Positions 2,557 through 47,355 are shown, numbered from the stretch's first letter. The stretch is 47,355 nt of DNA from a virus (IMGVR_UViG_3300009678_000018:1-47355), one strand, 5' to 3'. Program-made: numbers and translations. Notes: generated by a model not told the origin, from the letters alone.

Positions 2557-2742
2557 ATGACGCTCACGCCCGACGAAGTGGAACCGGTCGACCCCGCACG
2601 ATGCGCGCATCTCTGGGTGCTCGGGGTGTTCGGCCAACCCGTTCGTGAGGTGGCCGTGTGCATCAAGTGCCACGCGATGCGCGACAACGCGCTCAAAGAC
2701 CAATCCAGGGGAGATCCCACGCCCGCCCACGGCGATGGCTAG
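2557..2742 (+). CDS. Small hypothetical protein with a CxH...CxxCH pattern
   Basis: ATG 2557, in frame with track ORF 2386..2742. Translation is MTLTPDEVEPVDPARCAHLW...VCIKCHAMRD. It overlaps the terL start by 8 nt. Confidence 0.45.
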   Translation: MTLTPDEVEPVDPARCAHLWVLGVFGQPVREVAVCIKCHAMRDNALKDQSRGDPTPAHGDG

Positions 2743-4357
2743 GCCGATTCCGGCGCCGCCGGATGGCTACGTCTTCGCCTACCCGCCCCACCCCAAGACC
2801 GGCGTCCGCGTGCCCAACGCACGCCAGGCGCTCGCGCACATGTGCCCCGCCGACGAGCTGTTCTATGGCGGCGTTCGAGGGGGCGGCAAGACGGAGTTTC
2901 TCGGGACCGACTTTGGCGACGCCGCGCTGAAGTTCCCCGGCATCCGCATGCTGCTCGTCCGCAAAACGCGCGAGGAAATGAAATCGAACATCGTCCCGGT
3001 GTTCAAGCGCATCTATCGGGACATCGCGCGGTGGTCACGGGCGGACCACTCCTTCCTGTTCTTCAACGGCGGCGAGCTCATCGTCGACTTCATGACGAAC
3101 GAGGAGGACATCGCGCGCTACCTCGGCTCGGAGTTCGGCCTCATCGGCGTCGACCAGGCCGAGCAGCTCGCCGAGTACACGGTGCTCGGCCTCTCATCGT
3201 GCCTGCGCTCAACGCGCCCCTGGCCGAAGAAACTACGCCTGACGGGCAACCCGGGCCTCGGCGTCGGCGTGGCCTGGCTGCGGCGGCGCTACGTGCGGCC
3301 GCAACCGGCCGAGCTCGGCGACCGGCGCGCACCGCGCCCGTGCGAACTGTGGCGGCCGCTGCCGCGGCCCGGCGATCCGACACCCCCCGAGCAAGTGCCG
3401 ACGCGCTGCTTCATCCCCGCGCGCTACGAGGACAACGAGGCGCTCGTCGCCGGCGACCCGCTGTACAAGGCGCGCATCTATCAGGCGTTCACCATCAACA
3501 TCGCCCGCGCTCAAGCGGAGGGCGATTGGGATGCCAACGACGCGACGATCGTCGGTCCGTTGTGGAAGGACGACCACACGGTCACGGCCGAGCTGCAGGC
3601 CAGGTATCCCGATCTGTTTTACGTCGGCCAGCGCATCGACTGGCACGTCATTCGAAACAGCCAGTGGCGGCCGCCGAAGGGCGCGATGATCTTCGGCTCG
3701 CACGATTGGGGCTTCAATCCGTATTCGTTTCACCTGCACGCCACCCTACCCAATGGCCATACGCGCACGTTTCTCGAGGCCTATCAGTCCGGCAAGCGTG
3801 AGGTCGAGCAGGCGGCCGCGATGCGCGAGCTGCTGACCCGCGAGTGCTTCGCCGGCACTGACATCCCGCTGATGGAAGGACTGCAGTGGATCGTGTACGA
3901 CCCGATCATCGAAGGCAGCCGGCTCTACGCGAGCCAGGCCAAGACCATCATCGAAGTCTTCCGCGAGGAATTGCCGCAGGTCATCTTTCGACCGGGCTCA
4001 GCGACGCGCGCCGCGCGCATGTCGCGCCCCGGCCGTTGGCTCGACGCGCTGTCGACGGCGCCCGATGGCTTTCCGTGGTGGAGCGTGACGACGGCCTGCC
4101 CCGAGCTCATCCGCACCGTCGTCGAAGTCCCGCGCGACCCGGACGATCCCGACGTCGAGGACGACGCGAGCGAGAACCACGCGTACGAAGACACTGGCCG
4201 CTTCTTCGAAGCCCGGCCGCACGCGCCCCGTGTCGCGCCCGTCGATCCCTTCGCGCACCTGAAGGACGATCCGATCTCGCACGCGCACCAGGTCGCGCTC
4301 GCCAAGCGCCACGACCAGCCGAAAGGCGGATCGCTCGGCGGCCTCGCGAAGCGCTGA
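2735..4357 (+). CDS. terL: Terminase large subunit
   Basis: Walker A-like GGVRGGGKTE, Walker B-like LIGVDQAEQL, and a C-terminal nuclease-like region (GSHDWGFNP ... ENHAYEDTGRF). 540 aa, upstream of the portal. Confidence 0.85.
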   Translation: MARPIPAPPDGYVFAYPPHPKTGVRVPNARQALAHMCPADELFYGGVRGGGKTEFLGTDFGDAALKFPGIRMLLVRKTREEMKSNIVPVFKRIYRDIARWSRADHSFLFFNGGELIVDFMTNEEDIARYLGSEFGLIGVDQAEQLAEYTVLGLSSCLRSTRPWPKKLRLTGNPGLGVGVAWLRRRYVRPQPAELGDRRAPRPCELWRPLPRPGDPTPPEQVPTRCFIPARYEDNEALVAGDPLYKARIYQAFTINIARAQAEGDWDANDATIVGPLWKDDHTVTAELQARYPDLFYVGQRIDWHVIRNSQWRPPKGAMIFGSHDWGFNPYSFHLHATLPNGHTRTFLEAYQSGKREVEQAAAMRELLTRECFAGTDIPLMEGLQWIVYDPIIEGSRLYASQAKTIIEVFREELPQVIFRPGSATRAARMSRPGRWLDALSTAPDGFPWWSVTTACPELIRTVVEVPRDPDDPDVEDDASENHAYEDTGRFFEARPHAPRVAPVDPFAHLKDDPISHAHQVALAKRHDQPKGGSLGGLAKR

Positions 4358-4360
4358 AGG

Positions 4361-4374
4361 GTTTCACGTGGAAC
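4361..4374. promoter_or_regulatory. parS: parS-like centromere site (GTTTCACGTGGAAC)
   Basis: The reverse complement GTTCCACGTGAAAC equals the 14-bp core of the conserved bacterial parS consensus tGTTNCACGTGAAACa. It lies 3 nt after the terL stop. Confidence 0.6.
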
Positions 4375-4410
4375 GGGTCTGGCGGGGTCTGGCGGGGTCT
4401 GGCGGGGTCG
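4375..4410 (+). repeat. 3.6 tandem copies of the 10-bp unit GGGTCTGGCG (four G-runs spaced exactly 10 bp)
   Basis: gggtctggcg gggtctggcg gggtctggcg gggtcg, with G-runs at 4375-77, 4384-87, 4394-97 and 4404-07. It fits the G3+N6G3+N6G3+N6G3+ quadruplex pattern. Confidence 0.9.
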
Positions 4411-4434
4411 TTTGCTTGACGGAATGTACACGAC

Positions 4435-4758
4435 GTGCAGAATTATCAACTCGTGCGGTGGCCGTTCCTCACTCGCGCCCGACACGACGAGGCGATGAAT
4501 CTCGCGGCTGATCGTTTCCGAATCCTCGAAAAGCACGTCGACACTGAAGCGGCGCGACAGGGCTACGAGCTGTCCGGCGCGCTCGCGCGCGAAGCGTACT
4601 GGCGTGAGCGCTGTGAGCTCGCGCTCGATCAGCTCATCGCGCGCGGCGCCGCCGCGCCGCTGATGGTTGAACACGCGCCCGCCGTCAACGGGACGAGGAG
4701 CCCGTTCGCCGGCATGCTGACGACCGAAATCGATTCGAGAAAGAACGCCGCGGGGTAG
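4435..4758 (+). CDS. Hypothetical protein
   Basis: 107-aa ORF with a GTG start. Alternative ATG at 4495 (MNLAADRF..) if the TTGACG at 4416-4421 is a promoter -35. The stop overlaps the first 10 nt of the tRNA. Confidence 0.4.
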   Translation: MQNYQLVRWPFLTRARHDEAMNLAADRFRILEKHVDTEAARQGYELSGALAREAYWRERCELALDQLIARGAAAPLMVEHAPAVNGTRSPFAGMLTTEIDSRKNAAG

Positions 4759-4825
4759 CTCAGCCGGTCAGAGCACCTGGCTCATAACCAGGAGGTCGGC
4801 GGTTCGAGACCGCCCCCCGCAACCA
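4749..4825 (+). tRNA. tRNA-Met (anticodon CAT), initiator-like acceptor stem, CCA encoded
   Basis: Hand-folded 77-nt cloverleaf: cgcgggg ta gctc agccggtca gagc a cctgg ctCATaa ccagg aggtc ggcgg ttcgaga ccgcc ccccgca a cca. It has a C1xA72 mismatch, and its acceptor stem is identical to that of E. coli tRNA-fMet. Confidence 0.85.
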
Positions 4826-4869: not shown

Positions 4870-7152
4870 GTGACGACGACCACGCCGGCTCCGCGCTCCT
4901 CCCCCACCGGAGCGGCGCCCGCCGCAACCGATTACCAGAGCGACGCGGCACAAGCGTTGATGGAGCGGTGTCTCCAGCAGGCGCGGAACGATAGTGCGCG
5001 CAAAGCGCGCGATCGCGCGGACTGGTGGAACCTGCTGATGTACCGCGGCGGTGAGAACCAGTGGAAGGTCTGGGACCGTGCGACCGAGCGGTACGTCGAC
5101 CGCGGCACGGACCCAGCGACCGGCGGCATTCCCGCGCACGTCCCCCGCTGCTGCACCAATCACTTCGCCGTCAAGATCGACGGCATCGCCGCCATCCTCG
5201 ACCAGACGTCGCCGGCGAAAGAGTGTGGACCTGGCGCGGCTGAGGATCGCGATCGCGCCGCGGCCGAAGTCGCGAACGACGCGCTGCCGGTGCTCTTCGA
5301 GGAAATCGGCTACGAGGACGACCGGTCGCAGATTCACAAGCTCGTCACGCTCACCGACCGTGTCGGCTATGTCCTGTACTGCGACAACGACGAGAAGTAC
5401 GGGACCGACCACATTCCCGCGCTGCAGTGCCAGGCGTGCGGAGAGTTCGCCGGGCCGGCAGAGCTGACGGACGACGACACGTGCCCGCACTGCGGCAAGG
5501 GCCCGATGGTGCCCGCGCAGCATCCGCAGACGGGCGAGCTCCTTGCCTACGAATATCCGAAAGGCCGGCTCTGCGGCAGCATCGCGACGAGCTTCGAGCT
5601 CTCGACGCCGCCCAACTCACGCACGACCGACACGCGCAAGCTGCCGTGGGTCTTGCGCCACCGCCGCACGCCGCGCGAGGAAGTGCTCGCCCGCTGGCCC
5701 GAGCTCCGCGAGAAGCTCACCGACGAGGGCACGAACGATCAGAACAACGCCGCGGGCGCCATGTACGCCGATGCGCTCGCCGGCCTGGTGGCGCCGCTCG
5801 GCAACGACGGGCGGCCCGCCGGCGCGTCGGGCTTGTGGGTCGCCGAGCTCTGGCACGACCCGATCGACGACGGCGAGCTGAAGTTTCCGCAAGGCCTGTA
5901 TCGCGTGATGGTGGGGGACCACGTCGCGCACTCCGGCCCGCTCGAGTACGTCGACGACGACGGCCGCCCGTTCAAGAACGTCCTCATTCGCACCTTCGCG
6001 ACGGCGCCCGGCGGCGGCGGCAAGCCGCCCGGGGACGACCTCGCGCCGATCCAGGTGCAGCATAACGTCGTCGAGAGCTTGATCGACCTGGCGACGATGA
6101 ACTACGCCGCCGGGAAAGACTACATCCCGCTCTCGGTCACCCTCATCGACGAGCCGACCGGCGCCCCCGGCGAGCGCATCCGCTACAAGTCGAACATCCC
6201 CGGCGAAGTCCCGACACACGTTGAGGGTAAGTCGCCGGCGGCCGGGCTCTTCGAACGCTTGAAGCAGCTCGAGGAAGCGATGGACTCGGTCTCGCGCCTC
6301 AACGCGGTCCTCGCCGGCGAGCGCCCTGAGGGTGATCCGACGCTGGGCGAAGTGCAACGGTTGGACGAGAACGGCATGCGCGCGTTCCGCGCCCCGCTCG
6401 ACGAGCTCGTGCGCTGGGAGAAGCAGGCCGCGCTCATGTGCCTGCGCATCGCGCGGCAGACGTCGTGGTCGGAGCGCTTCGCCGTCATCCGAGGCGAAAA
6501 CGGCGGTTGGGAAGTGGACGCGTTCATCGGCGCCGACCTCGATGGGCGCGTCGACATCTTCATCGATAAGGCGTCGGCCTGGCCGAAGTCGCCCATGCTT
6601 GAGTCGCTCCGTCTCAAAGAAGGCTTCGAGACGGGCCTCCTGCCGTCGCCGGCCGCGGCCGATCCCGAGCTCGCCGGCAAGCTCCTGTCCGCGCTCGACC
6701 TGGCGAAGTTCAAGCCGTCGCTCGATGGCGTGAAGAAGCACATCGCGCGCGAGCTCGACCGCTGGAAGAAGGCCACCGACCCGGCCGAGATCACGCCGCC
6801 GGATCCACTCATCCTCGGACCGCAGGCGATGGCGCTGCACCTGGCGCTCAAGCGCGCGTTCATGGTGACGGAAGAAGCCGAAGCGATGGCGGCGGACCCG
6901 GCGCGTCAGCCGGTCTACATGGCGATGCGCGCGCACCTCGAGCAGCTCCAACTGCTCTTGACGCCGCAACCGATGCCGGCGCCGGGCGACGGCGACGTGC
7001 TCGGCCAGGCCGTCGCGTCCGGCGCGCTGAAGCCGGTCAGTGAAGACAAAGGCTCGAATGTGGGCGAGCTGGTGCGAAGTGGCGCGTTGCGCCCCGCGCC
7101 GGACCCGCCCGCCGCTCAAGGGACGGCGCGACCCGCGCGAGGCGTGCATTGA
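4870..7152 (+). CDS. Portal protein (putative), with a CxxC...CxxC insertion
   Basis: 760 aa, GTG start, located between terminase and scaffold/capsid genes. The size suits a podovirus portal. The call rests on position and size only. Confidence 0.6.
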   Translation: MTTTTPAPRSSPTGAAPAATDYQSDAAQALMERCLQQARNDSARKARDRADWWNLLMYRGGENQWKVWDRATERYVDRGTDPATGGIPAHVPRCCTNHFAVKIDGIAAILDQTSPAKECGPGAAEDRDRAAAEVANDALPVLFEEIGYEDDRSQIHKLVTLTDRVGYVLYCDNDEKYGTDHIPALQCQACGEFAGPAELTDDDTCPHCGKGPMVPAQHPQTGELLAYEYPKGRLCGSIATSFELSTPPNSRTTDTRKLPWVLRHRRTPREEVLARWPELREKLTDEGTNDQNNAAGAMYADALAGLVAPLGNDGRPAGASGLWVAELWHDPIDDGELKFPQGLYRVMVGDHVAHSGPLEYVDDDGRPFKNVLIRTFATAPGGGGKPPGDDLAPIQVQHNVVESLIDLATMNYAAGKDYIPLSVTLIDEPTGAPGERIRYKSNIPGEVPTHVEGKSPAAGLFERLKQLEEAMDSVSRLNAVLAGERPEGDPTLGEVQRLDENGMRAFRAPLDELVRWEKQAALMCLRIARQTSWSERFAVIRGENGGWEVDAFIGADLDGRVDIFIDKASAWPKSPMLESLRLKEGFETGLLPSPAAADPELAGKLLSALDLAKFKPSLDGVKKHIARELDRWKKATDPAEITPPDPLILGPQAMALHLALKRAFMVTEEAEAMAADPARQPVYMAMRAHLEQLQLLLTPQPMPAPGDGDVLGQAVASGALKPVSEDKGSNVGELVRSGALRPAPDPPAAQGTARPARGVH

Positions 7153-36295: not shown

Positions 36296-37402
36296 TCACG
36301 ATTGCCTCGATTTCTGACGGGTCTTTCTCGACTGTAAAGCCCGCGGCACGGCGACCCCCTCGCCAATCCGCTCCACGGCCGCCACTTTGGCGGCATCGGC
36401 CGGATGCACGTAGCGCTCGAGCATGCGCAGCGAGCTCCACCCGCCGAGGACCTGCAACGTCCGCAGATCGACCCCCGCCTCCATCAACCGCGTCGCGCCG
36501 GTGTGGCGTAATCCGTGGAAGGTGATCCCGCCCGCCAGGCGGCCGTAGGCGAGGCGCGCACGCGTGCACCCGTCCTCCAGCATCTGTTTCAGGGAATTCG
36601 TCTGCAGGCGGGGCGTCGAGGCTTTCCGCCGATGCGCAAAGATGTACCGGCCGCGGCGTCGGAGCCTGTCGAGGGCCGCGCGCAGCCGCGACGAAATCGG
36701 CACGCGGTACGCGGTCCCTGTCTTCGGCTGCACGACGGTCAGGTACGTCCCGTGGTCATGCGCCCACTCGAGCCGCAGCAGGTCGCCGGCGCGCATCAAC
36801 GTGTCGAGCGCGGCGATCACGAGCACTTGGTCGCGCCGTTCGAGGACGGCGAGCAGCCGCGTTTCATCGTCGCGCGACAGCACGGCGGGCTCGCGCGTCG
36901 GCGCCGCCGGCAGCCGCTTCAACCCCTCGAGCGGATTGCGCGCGAGGTACGTCGGCACCGCTTCGCCGAGCGCGTGCTTGAGCACGTCGACCTCGCGATT
37001 GACGGTGGCGGCCGCGACCTGGCCGCGGCGCATCGTGCGCCATTCGAGCACACGTTCGCGCGTGAGTTCGGCGAGCGGCCACTTCCCCACGCCCGCGCGC
37101 AGCGCGGCGAGGATCTCACGCTCGCGCGCGGCGCCGCGCTTGTGCGTGGTGACGTGCTGCTCATACCACGCGAGAAACGCCGACGTCTGGATCGTCGGCT
37201 TCGGGCCGGCGCCGGCGAGCCCGAGTACGCGCTCGGCCTGGCTTTGCCGAAACAGGGTCTCGGCCGACGCCTTCAGCTTGAGCCGTTGCGTGGCGGTGTC
37301 CGCGTCGTGATGAATCTTCGTGCTCTGTTGGACGACCGGCCGGCCGGGTGGCGTGAGCGTCATCCACCAATAGGGTGAACCGCTCCGGCGATAGATGCCC
37401 AT
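36296..37402 (-). CDS. int: Tyrosine recombinase / phage integrase
   Basis: Start at MGIYRRSGSPYWW (ATG 37402, ATGA overlap with the upstream gene). C-terminal HGLRHTGATRL...LGGWSSLRMLERYVH supplies the R-H-R-Y catalytic signature. Confidence 0.9.
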   Translation of the reverse strand: MGIYRRSGSPYWWMTLTPPGRPVVQQSTKIHHDADTATQRLKLKASAETLFRQSQAERVLGLAGAGPKPTIQTSAFLAWYEQHVTTHKRGAAREREILAALRAGVGKWPLAELTRERVLEWRTMRRGQVAAATVNREVDVLKHALGEAVPTYLARNPLEGLKRLPAAPTREPAVLSRDDETRLLAVLERRDQVLVIAALDTLMRAGDLLRLEWAHDHGTYLTVVQPKTGTAYRVPISSRLRAALDRLRRRGRYIFAHRRKASTPRLQTNSLKQMLEDGCTRARLAYGRLAGGITFHGLRHTGATRLMEAGVDLRTLQVLGGWSSLRMLERYVHPADAAKVAAVERIGEGVAVPRALQSRKTRQKSRQS

Positions 37403-37584
37403 CAACCCTTGCGGGCGAGCTTCACAGCGATGATCAGCCCCACGAGGATCGGTAGCCAGCGGACCACTCGTCGCACCACCGTCCGGGCCGCATCTGCATC
37501 GTCCTGGGTTGCCCAAACGATAACGCCGCTGACAAGAAGGCCAACGAGCACGCCAGGTATCCAGACACGCGGATTTAGGGTCAC
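37402..37584 (-). CDS. Small two-TM membrane protein translationally coupled to int
   Basis: GTG 37584 is preceded by GAGAGGTGA. Translation is VTLNPRVWIPGVLVGLLVSGVIVW...WLPILVGLIIAVKL. The track ORF extends to 37632. Confidence 0.45.
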   Translation of the reverse strand: MTLNPRVWIPGVLVGLLVSGVIVWATQDDADAARTVVRRVVRWLPILVGLIIAVKLARKG

Positions 37585-42817: not shown

Positions 42818-44317
42818 ATGCCCCGCCGCGCCGTCACCACCGCGAACGAAGTGCCGCCGATGCCCCCGATCACGACACATGCCCTCGAGGCGAGCTGGCT
42901 CGACATTGACAGCATCATCGCGAGTCCCCTCAATCCCCGGAAGCCCCACGCGGGCGACGATACGGATCTGGACGGCCTCGAGGCGTCGATCCGGCAGCAC
43001 GGCGTCTTGCAGCCGATCGTCGTCCGCGTCTCTCTGTTCGAGCCCGGGAAATACGAACTCGTCGCCGGCAGCCGGCGCCACGCCGCCACGAAGCGCGCCG
43101 GCCTCGAGACGATCCCGGCGACGGTGCGCGCCGTCACCGACGCGCAGCTCCTCGAGCTCGCGCTCACCGAGAACATCCAGCGCAAGAACATGCACCCGCT
43201 CGACGAAGCGAAGGCGCTCGATCGACTCCGCACGCTCGATCGCATCTACGCCGACGACAAGGTGCTCGCCGGCAAGATCGGCCGCTCCGAGACCTACGTG
43301 CGCGATCGGCTGAAGCTGCTCAAACTCGAGCCGGTCGTGCTCGAGGCGCTCGACGTCGACGCGATCACCGCGAAGCACGCCGAGCGCATCGCGCGACTGC
43401 CCAAGGATCAGCACATCGCGGCCCTGGCGGCGTGTTTCGGCGCGCTCTACAACGCGAGGAAGTCCATCGAGAAGCAGATCGACGACAAGGAGTGGGCAGA
43501 GCTCGCGCTCGACCTCGTGAAGCTCAGCCAATTCGATGAGTGGGTCGAGGACCACACCAAGGTCGACATCGACGATCCCGCTGTTCGAAAACAGCTCAAG
43601 CTCGAGCCGGTCGCGGAGCAGCGCACCGAGGCGGACGACCAGGCCGACATCGACGCGGCCGCCGTCGTGCGCCTGCAGTTGTCGGACGACGGGTATCTCG
43701 ACCGAGACACCGCGAGGGCGATGAACGTCATCCCGTCGACCGCGTGGAAGGAAGTCAAGAGCGAGAAGAACCGCTGCGAATACACGCGCGCGGCCGTCGT
43801 TGTCCACGGCGGCAAACTCCGGACGCTCGACGCCTGCACGCGCCGTTCGTGCTCGAAGCACTTCCCGAAGCCCCGGGCGACCAGCTCGGGCCGGTCGGCG
43901 CCCGCGAACGACTACAAGGCCGAGCAGGAGAAGTGTGAGAAGCGCGCTGCCGAGTGGAAGCGGGTGCGGGGCCGGTACTTCGCGGCGCTCGCCGAGCACG
44001 TCGAGCTCAAGTTCACGAAGCTCACGGCGGCCATTGTCAGAAACGCCGTCGCCCAGTGGGAGAGGAACTTCATCGCGAAGGAGTACGGCGTCGCCCTGAC
44101 GGACAAGACCGCTTTGACGGTGCTGGTGCTCTCCCTGCCCCGAACGAGCGAGCTTCAGTTCTTCGGCCCCGACGCGAAGAAGCTCGGCCTCAACGTCGAC
44201 GCGGTGACGAAGGCGATCGCGGCCGAGGACGCGGCCGCAGCGAAGGCGGCCGCCAAGACCGACACGCAAGCCAAGACGCCGGCGCCGGCGAAGAAGAAGG
44301 GCAAGGCCAAGAAGTGA
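42818..44317 (+). CDS. parB: ParB/Spo0J-like protein
   Basis: GGAGATCCC precedes ATG 42818. Matches include LNPRK, GVLQPIVVR, YELVAGSRRHAATKRAG (arginine patch), LTENIQRKNMHPLDEAKAL and the HTH LAGKIGRSETYVRDRLKLLKL. Lys/Ala-rich tail. Confidence 0.8.
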   Translation: MPRRAVTTANEVPPMPPITTHALEASWLDIDSIIASPLNPRKPHAGDDTDLDGLEASIRQHGVLQPIVVRVSLFEPGKYELVAGSRRHAATKRAGLETIPATVRAVTDAQLLELALTENIQRKNMHPLDEAKALDRLRTLDRIYADDKVLAGKIGRSETYVRDRLKLLKLEPVVLEALDVDAITAKHAERIARLPKDQHIAALAACFGALYNARKSIEKQIDDKEWAELALDLVKLSQFDEWVEDHTKVDIDDPAVRKQLKLEPVAEQRTEADDQADIDAAAVVRLQLSDDGYLDRDTARAMNVIPSTAWKEVKSEKNRCEYTRAAVVVHGGKLRTLDACTRRSCSKHFPKPRATSSGRSAPANDYKAEQEKCEKRAAEWKRVRGRYFAALAEHVELKFTKLTAAIVRNAVAQWERNFIAKEYGVALTDKTALTVLVLSLPRTSELQFFGPDAKKLGLNVDAVTKAIAAEDAAAAKAAAKTDTQAKTPAPAKKKGKAKK

Positions 44318-47050: not shown

Positions 47051-47355
47051 TGTTCACCACGCCCAACGTCAAGCTCGTCCTCGCCCGCGCCACGCTGCGG
47101 AAGCGCAAGCAGCAGGACGCGCTCGATCGCGCGCGCGAGCCGGTCCTCACGTACTACGTCGTGCCGCGCGCGCTCTACGAGCGTCACGTTGGCGGCCCCT
47201 GGCTCGAGCTGGCGTCGGCAGCAGACGCCGCGGGCGCGGGATGTCGCATCGAGCGCTGCCGCAAGCGCGATCTCGGCTTGGCGGTCGCGGACGGCTTCGC
47301 GGTGGTCTACGAAGGCGCCCCGGGACAGATTTTCATCGCCCGGCAGGGCTGGTGA
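47050..47355 (+). CDS. Hypothetical protein (101 aa). Its 3' end is the terminal repeat.
   Basis: TGATG junction. It ends at the TGA at 47353-47355, equivalent to 121-123. Confidence 0.5.
   Translation: MFTTPNVKLVLARATLRKRKQQDALDRAREPVLTYYVVPRALYERHVGGPWLELASAADAAGAGCRIERCRKRDLGLAVADGFAVVYEGAPGQIFIARQGW
47233..47355. repeat. Terminal direct repeat, copy 2 (identical to 1-123)
   Basis: Exact 123-bp identity with the window start. Confidence 0.9.

Follow-up and report, generated by a model that had tools for sequence, protein, structure and literature searches.

We found that a temperate phage genome of 47,355 bp (67.6% GC), analysed here at its full length and referred to as the window, carries one exact core of the bacterial parS site, and that this 14-mer, GTTTCACGTGGAAC at 4361-4374 on the + strand, is best read as a genuine, selected parS-type site that is predicted to load a ParB-family HTH dimer. 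Our leading, still tentative explanation is that it serves as a loading site for the chromosomal ParB of the host, by analogy with phi29. The sequence itself, its improbability by chance, its conservation, the layout of the cassette in which it stands and the residue differences of the ParB that the phage encodes were observed directly.

The reverse complement of GTTTCACGTGGAAC is GTTCCACGTGAAAC, which fits the 14-bp core of the bacterial parS consensus TGTTNCACGTGAAACA at 14/14 positions, so that all 12 specified core positions are matched. Extended to the 16-mer GGTTTCACGTGGAACG (4360-4375), the site agrees with TGTTNCACGTGNAACA at 14/16 positions, and the mismatches fall on the two outer bases (consensus T and A). 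Membership of the parS consensus tolerates one to two mismatches to TGTTNCACGTGAAACA, and the window site lies within that tolerance. By chance, 0.0013 (zero-order model) to 0.0017 (first-order model) exact GTTNCACGTGNAAC cores are expected in the window; this exclusion of chance argues for a site read by host ParB. The sequence-only reading of this genome had found no second full copy by eye and had called for a scan with a parS matrix; our scan of the 47,355 bp returned the core at 4361-4374 alone, the next best matches having 2-3 mismatches.

As a control we used generic chromosomal ParBs, which were collected by scanning metagenome contigs with an alignment of the phage ParB, a broad pattern. 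The 80 metagenomic loci with ordinary ParBs among the matches listed carry 33 canonical cores, mostly clustered just 5′ of parB. Variants at the outer bases are found among these cores, such as GGTTTCACGTGGAACA (a single outer base), CGTTTCACGTGAAACA and, in one site with both outer bases altered, CGTTTCACGTGAAACT. Because the control loci show comparable outer-base variants, the window site is within the natural variation of chromosomal parS, which again favours the host protein as its reader. The central hexamer CACGTG occurs 14 times in the genome against 20 ± 4 expected, neither depleted nor enriched, and a restriction-site effect was rejected on this count.

The same genome was assembled in at least three metagenomes, at 47,353, 47,355 and 47,373 bp. 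These assemblies are of near-equal length and have different start points; therefore, the genome is that of a complete circular or terminally redundant phage. A tyrosine integrase (36296-37516, - strand; phrog_1, 7.6e-52; Phage_integrase family in the gene calls), already recognised in the sequence-only reading, marks the phage, to judge from its gene content, as temperate and integrative. A gene for a GroES/Cpn10-like co-chaperonin lies at 196-990, just 5′ of the terminase module, and is conserved in the relatives L014, L020, L025, L032 and L207.

The gene for the large terminase subunit, terL, occupies 2735-4357 (+ strand; 540-aa gene call; phrog_979, 1.6e-21; Walker A at 2870); its open frame reaches upstream to a GTG at 2645 and ends with a TGA at 4355-4357. 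The core had been described as lying 3 nt past this stop and adjoining a 10-bp repeat array, and both statements proved correct. The array, (GGGTCTGGCG)x3.5 with a 10-bp period, spans 4375-4409 (+ strand; TRF, copies 100% identical), abuts the parS core and fills the gap up to a -35 hexamer; elsewhere in the window, the GGGTCTGGCG unit was not found beyond chance. The hexamer belongs to a sigma-70-like promoter, TTGACG-16-CAGAAT at 4416-4443 (+ strand), of which one was found against 0.0 in shuffles and which reads into a small ORF, a tRNA gene and the portal gene. The small ORF (4435-4758, + strand; 107 aa; metagenome gene call), the first gene past the promoter in the gap between terL and portal, has homologues in L019, L020, L032, L025, L028, L029 and L009. 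The tRNA-Met (CAT) gene at 4749-4825 (+ strand; ARAGORN; Rfam tRNA, 66 bits) shares 10 nt with the 3′ end of the small ORF and is absent from the closest relatives L019, L020 and L032. The portal gene (4870-7152, + strand; phrog_156) is the first large gene of the unit 3′ of the cassette, and portal homologues adjoin terL in all relatives.

The window, L019 and L020 share one order of elements: terL stop, 3 nt, parS, 41-44 nt of repeats, sigma-70-like promoter, small ORF and portal. The repeats are clear 10-bp direct repeats in two of these three phages, the window and L019. Direct repeats run from the palindrome to the -35 hexamer at 4375-4409 in the window, 3076-3115 in L019, approximately 4398-4441 in L020 and approximately 11829-11870 in L015; the unit is GCGTGGGTTC in L019 and is degenerate in L020 (TC..CGTGG) and L015 (GCCGGGaCCGT). 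Because the sequence of the unit varies between phages while its position and its phase into the -35 hexamer are retained, the repeats suggest either a phage-specific site for a second factor or activator, or a phased upstream element. Membership of a promoter cassette, which the sequence-only reading had missed, makes a regulatory role of the parS-type site as plausible as a role in segregation.

Explanations at the level of RNA fail, which also counts in favour of a site for host ParB. No terminator-like site was found near the core, the RNA fold of the site region is not unusual (z-score -0.69) and Rfam recovered only the tRNA in this region; an RNA element or terminator was rejected on these grounds. 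An additional CI/Cro operator was likewise rejected, given that no related half-sites were found in the control region at 37.5-38.2 kb and that half-sites elsewhere are at chance level.

We found no DNA-level relative among the cultured phages of INPHARED; the relatives compared here are metagenomic and were found by protein searches. In L020/L021, whose terL is 71% identical to that of the window, GTTCCACGTGGAAC starts 3 nt past the terL stop. It departs from the window core only where the bacterial consensus has N, and the remaining intergenic DNA has diverged; a position conserved between diverged flanks is a further argument for reading by host ParB. The promoter of L020, TTGACA-17-CACAAT, lies 44 nt downstream of the site. 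L019 (terL 71%) retains GTTCCACG with an unchanged offset from the terL stop, and in the alignment a 9-nt insertion and substitutions break up the right half; past this decayed site follow (GCGTGGGTTC)x4 and then TGGACA-17-CATTAT. Loss of the site between conserved flanks was the pattern that would speak against the sequence-only reading, and what we found is that L020/L021 retain the site between diverged flanks and that the L019 copy is decayed. The element is, on this comparative pattern, real and selected, yet dispensable in at least one lineage (L019).

Past the terL stop of L032 (terL 63%), no site was found; a 14/16 match in this relative falls within the coding sequence of a conserved EVPRE peptide and probably arose by coincidence. 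More distant relatives (terL 42-52%) have promoter-like hexamers past terL when inspected by eye, for example TTGACA-17-TACACT in L009, and no parS past terL. A scan of metagenome contigs with the terL alignment yielded no matches. Relatives of terL at 44-48% identity (L009, which is JBFWZN010000001.1, as well as P0158 and P0183) lie in Vicinamibacterales/Acidobacteria MAG contigs of 48 kb to 1.6 Mb. There are hints that the host lineage is Acidobacteriota (Vicinamibacterales), with which the GC content of 67.6% would be compatible. Because several long terL relatives (P0128, P0168, P0172, P0193, P0198 and P0210; 735-937 aa) carry intein/Hint or homing-endonuclease (LAGLIDADG-type) Pfam families, this terminase lineage has been invaded by inteins; the L006/L008 tblastn matches are split in keeping with this.

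The element recurs outside this terminase lineage. L015 has a different terminase and portal module and shares an early module with the window (AAA_24 ATPase, ParB with 42% identity, methyltransferase); in the gap past its terminase genes lies TGTTCCACGCGGAACA, a 15/16 match of which 0.0006 are expected in the locus. This independent recurrence next to a different head module supports host ParB as the reader. A stretch of 17 nt, CGCTGACGTGTTCCACG, is identical between L015 and L019. The promoter downstream of the L015 site was seen by eye only and failed the promoter scan.

Near-consensus sites were also found near promoters in three further relatives. In L029 (417-432) and L207 (8685-8700), with terL at 50-56% identity, TGTTCC(C/G)CGTGGAACA matches parS at 15/16 positions and lies directly past a -10 hexamer, across the GTG start of a PhageMetallopep (PF18894) gene approximately 1.3 kb 5′ of terL. 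In nine other relatives, the PhageMetallopep homologues have the promoter and lack the palindrome. L025 carries GGTTTCACGAGGAACA just 5′ of its Cpn10 gene. The pattern scan built on ParB relatives, which has limited sensitivity, recovered no ParB on the L025 and L029 contigs, and none was found in the 10 kb upstream of terL in L207. Because the site-bearing relatives include some without a detected ParB, the host ParB would be the simpler common factor.

The phage itself encodes an orphan long ParB of 499 aa (42818-44317, + strand; ParB_N 4e-24, HTH_ParB 1e-10). This protein has the marks of the ParB-CTPase fold, namely a ParB_N domain with the GxxRxxA and ENxQR boxes (here GSRRHAA and ENIQR) and an HTH_ParB domain. 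Among proteins of solved structure, those nearest to it are T. thermophilus Spo0J (3e-27), B. subtilis Spo0J, Noc and Caulobacter ParB, with KorB far more distant at 1e-9. In an AlphaFold2 model (pLDDT 82), the N-terminal half matches the Noc, ParB and KorB folds at an E-value of 2e-13; no PDB fold match was returned for the C-terminal half in this search, which the N-terminal domain dominated. The protein had been described as a Spo0J-type ParB: its ParB_N and HTH domains and its GSRRHAA box are real, and the chromosomal-type character is confined to the N-terminal and HTH domains. Beyond these, a C-terminal extension of approximately 300 residues contains an invariant Cys/His motif as well as a Lys-rich tail. 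PF23552 (ParB C-terminal dimerisation) was not recorded for the phage ParB in a search that listed it for many chromosomal ParBs of approximately 290 aa, and the ParA-binding motif LG(R/K)GL, which is present in the canonical ParBs of L039 and L052, is absent from its N-terminus.

This ParB belongs to a metagenomic family of proteins of approximately 500 aa that are encoded in phage early regions; among the cultured phages of INPHARED, no full-length relative was found, the coverage being at most 44%. One metagenomic contig of 16.2 kb encodes both a terL (P0126) and a ParB of 509 aa. Residues C320, H330, C340, C345 and H348 are invariant in the family (residues 320-348, window 43775-43861) and probably form a zinc site; they lie in a beta-rich module that is followed by a helical domain and then by the Lys-rich tail.

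That no ParA with a deviant Walker A accompanies this ParB, as had been proposed from inspection, was borne out: six-frame translation of the window contains no KGGxxK[ST], Walker A motifs occur only in terL and the AAA_24 ATPase, and the metagenome gene calls include no ParA or CbiA Pfam family. Orphan phage ParBs without a ParA motif are a described class (PMC12704722). With the circular junction in between, 7.4 kb separate the site from the parB gene upstream of it, so that it does not adjoin the par genes as a partition centromere would. In the search for a different cognate palindrome of the phage ParB, none was seen in the 185-nt gap 3′ of parB, and the ParB-family loci share no perfect palindrome of 14-16 bp.

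Whether this ParB could read parS depends on its recognition residues. The specificity for parS or NBS has been mapped to Caulobacter positions 173, 179, 184 and 201, which are R/T/A/G in ParB and Q/K/K/R in Noc (Jalal et al., PMC7383237). R173 reads G1 of the parS core, and in deep mutational scanning, R173 was invariant among the parS-binding variants, whose residue at position 201 was limited to G, C, S or T (PMC7383237). In an alignment with Spo0J and Noc, the residues of the phage ParB are E173, R179, K184 and K201 (E/R/K/K versus R/T/A/G in ParB), as well as D178 and E204, so that the cis-encoded protein has E, D, K and E in place of the parS-reading residues R173, N178, G201 and R204. 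Among the matches listed, the 80 aligned ordinary ParBs have R173 in all but seven, a near-universal N178 and G201 wherever that position aligned, and in L039, L052 and L064, the three viral loci in which a canonical parS occurs together with a ParB, the protein has the canonical residues and a ParA motif. On this comparison, which transfers residues from another protein scaffold, that of Caulobacter, the reading of canonical parS by the phage ParB is doubtful, and its lack of parS-reading residues argues for host ParB instead (PMC7383237). It had also been suggested that the phage ParB might load at origin-proximal sites of the host; E173, D178, K201 and E204, set against the residues needed (PMC7383237), make this doubtful too. 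Because position 173 varies within the family of approximately 500-aa ParBs (E, A, V, P or K) while R177 is conserved, recognition could be re-wired.

A search of IMG/VR placed the site in a wider setting. The exact parS core is present in more than 120 contigs, compared with 20 and 76 for two composition-matched controls, which sets a lower bound of at least 1.6-6 fold on the enrichment, and tblastn detected no ParB-like gene in the flanks of 233 fetched core-bearing loci. Orphan host-type parS sites may be fairly common on viral contigs. Two full 16-mers and no ParB gene in the fetched flanks were seen in L087, L104, L110, L134, L141 and L166. In L180, L306, L325, L346, L350 and L355, all from sample 3300045988 and approximately 11.2-11.8 kb in length, each end of the contig has a parS core nearby, the two being inverted relative to each other as parts of terminal inverted repeats. 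These contigs recall phi29, whose parS sites lie near the genome ends.

From these observations, we infer which protein binds and what binding does. The chromosomal ParB of the host, which binds this near-universal sequence in most bacteria, would be the most likely reader. On phage DNA that is not integrated, be it in incoming, replicating or excised circles, this protein would use the site for nucleation, form a closed CTP clamp and then spread across the terminase-portal region, and the clamps would tie the phage genome to the ParABS/SMC positioning machinery of the host. Loading may also modulate, dampen or insulate the adjacent promoter. The phage ParB would then be a ParA-less paralogue with shifted specificity.

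The precedent for host ParB as reader is phi29, which carries five host-type parS sites that are used through Spo0J (Meijer et al. 2005, as cited in PMC2731898). Both phages have a consensus site for host ParB/Spo0J on their genome, and a chromosomal partition protein could be used in trans where no phage ParA exists. The differences are considerable, since phi29 is a lytic, protein-primed Firmicute phage with five sites, no ParB of its own and a role in spore entrapment, whereas the window phage is a temperate, integrase-bearing soil phage with 67.6% GC, one site in a promoter cassette and a divergent ParB of its own, and its use of host ParB is our proposal. Compared with chromosomal ParABS, the 14-bp core and its dyad symmetry are identical and variation is limited to the degenerate and outer positions; however, the window site is neither origin-proximal nor clustered, no ParA is present and the cis-encoded ParB lacks the four parS-reading residues. 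What survives of the sequence-only reading, in sum, is a non-random, retained parS site with a precedent for host ParB loading in phi29 as reported in PMC2731898; its plasmid-like lifestyle finds no support, and its phage ParB acting at host sites is doubtful.

Several observations stand against loading by host ParB. There is one site only, compared with five in phi29 and the usual clusters on chromosomes, and if host ParB sufficed, it would be hard to see why the clade also keeps a chromosomal-type ParB. The site is decayed in L019 and hence dispensable there. In a lysogen, an ectopic host-type parS that is functional could upset chromosome organisation through ParB/SMC loading. Finally, the near-identical cassettes of the window and L015, together with their common ParB-containing early module, would fit the phage ParB as the reader equally well.

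That the long ParB of the phage reads the site is accordingly the alternative to be weighed most closely, and we consider it a real possibility, if an unlikely one. ParB produced from the early operon would load at the site, at approximately -85, and slide as a CTP clamp into the neighbouring promoter, perhaps being captured by a factor on the 10-bp repeats, and would switch the portal/head operon on or off in the manner of KorB or BisD. The CTP-binding motifs GSRRHAA and ENIQR are intact, as this requires, and an HTH nearest to that of Spo0J/Noc (3e-27 versus 1e-9 for KorB) would be expected to target a 16-bp palindrome of the parS/NBS type. The lack of both a ParA and a ParA-binding motif is shared with the described orphan phage ParBs (PMC12704722). 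The site lies 41-44 nt 5′ of the -35 hexamer in the window, L020 and L019, and the layout looks similar by eye in L015. The recognition helix is the same in the ParB of that phage, which has the early module, ParB included, but not the head module in common with the window. The variable position 173 may not read bases in this family, and R177 or R179 could take over. Against this, parS binding by the Caulobacter scaffold does not tolerate E173 and K201 (PMC7383237), residues that almost never occur in ordinary ParBs, near-consensus sites are also found in relatives without a detected ParB, and the L015 promoter failed the scan. The site is decayed in L019 while L014, from the same sample and of matching relatedness, keeps the ParB; no overlap was found that would join the ParB-bearing contig L014 to the terL-bearing contig L019, and the two may be one phage. 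In L016, L018 and L033, we found no site at distances of up to 10 kb from the ParB gene, which also bears against the phage ParB as the reader, within the extent of these loci: the post-terL region of L016 is beyond the locus end, L018 ends 2.5 kb past parB and L033 has no true terL identified.

Comparison with other ParB-fold proteins sharpens this alternative. As with KorB-OB of RK2 and BisD of ICEclc, a mobile element here encodes an HTH-bearing CTPase of the ParB fold and has a palindrome near or upstream of promoters (PMC12409273; PDB 8qa8/8qa9), and by analogy, a regulatory outcome instead of partition is plausible for the phage ParB. It differs from KorB in being far closer to Spo0J/Noc (3e-27 versus 1e-9) and in that the site is a chromosomal parS, not OB; no KorA-like partner was identified in the window phage. 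The basic residues at 179, 184 and 201 and the non-Arg residue at 173 in this ParB paralogue recall the switch from ParB to the QKKR of Noc (PMC7383237). Unlike Noc, the phage protein has E rather than Q at 173 as well as D178, E204 and a large Cys/His C-terminal extension, and an NBS-like site ATTTCCCGGGAAAT was not found. In a bolder form, which we regard as rather doubtful, the ParBs of approximately 500 aa would constitute a third specificity class after ParB and Noc, load in the form of CTP clamps at a parS-like site approximately 85 bp 5′ of the structural-gene promoter, control late transcription and compete or co-operate there with host ParB.

The palindrome might instead be the operator of a phage or host regulator outside the ParB family, its likeness to parS being convergent, which we consider improbable. 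Many protein families bind CACGTG-centred palindromes; the site stands in a promoter cassette, and the L029/L207 palindrome, right past the -10 hexamer and across a start codon, occupies a classic repressor position. However, the match extends to all 12 specified core positions, and the single base at which the phages differ is the one already known to be degenerate. The cI/cro control region, moreover, has no similar half-sites, and no other palindrome is common to the ParB-family loci.

Still less probable is a plasmid-like prophage state in which the site would act as centromere and the phage ParB as partition protein. In cells with ParABS, one parS can be enough to stabilise a plasmid, and circular assemblies of the genome come from at least three metagenomes; such assemblies, however, are equally expected for any terminally redundant phage. 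P1 ParAB-parS, N15 SopAB and actinobacteriophage parABS likewise combine a temperate phage with a ParB-family protein and a centromere-like site, but those systems have a ParA, a non-chromosomal parS of their own beside parB and usually no integrase, none of which holds for the window phage. Here, an integrase is present, the site is 7.4 kb from parB, neither a ParA nor a ParA-binding motif in ParB was found, and the site is decayed in L019, the lineage that may be the one keeping ParB (L014). The dual integrative and plasmid-like lifestyle raised in the sequence-only reading consequently finds no support. A functionless chance match, for which one could cite the many windows scanned for many motifs and the presence of the same 14-mer in more than 120 IMG/VR contigs, is effectively excluded by the approximately 0.0015 cores expected per window, the unchanged distance to the terL stop in a relative that is 71% identical and has diverged flanks and the recurrence in L015.

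What is new compared with phi29 is a single, positionally conserved site in the promoter cassette of a temperate high-GC soil phage with a divergent ParB, and the mismatch between the site and this ParB presents a clean puzzle. Were host ParB to load at the site, temperate soil phages would join phi29 in using the centromere system of bacteria to position, pass on or silence their DNA, and with the prophage the host chromosome would gain an ectopic ParB/SMC loading site. Were it the phage ParB that loads there, the ParB CTP switch would be put to a regulatory use that is new, and nature would provide an example of parS recognition that has been re-wired. Should the ParBs of this family form a third specificity class, the phage would possess a developmental switch that is made from, and wired into, the centromere system of its host.
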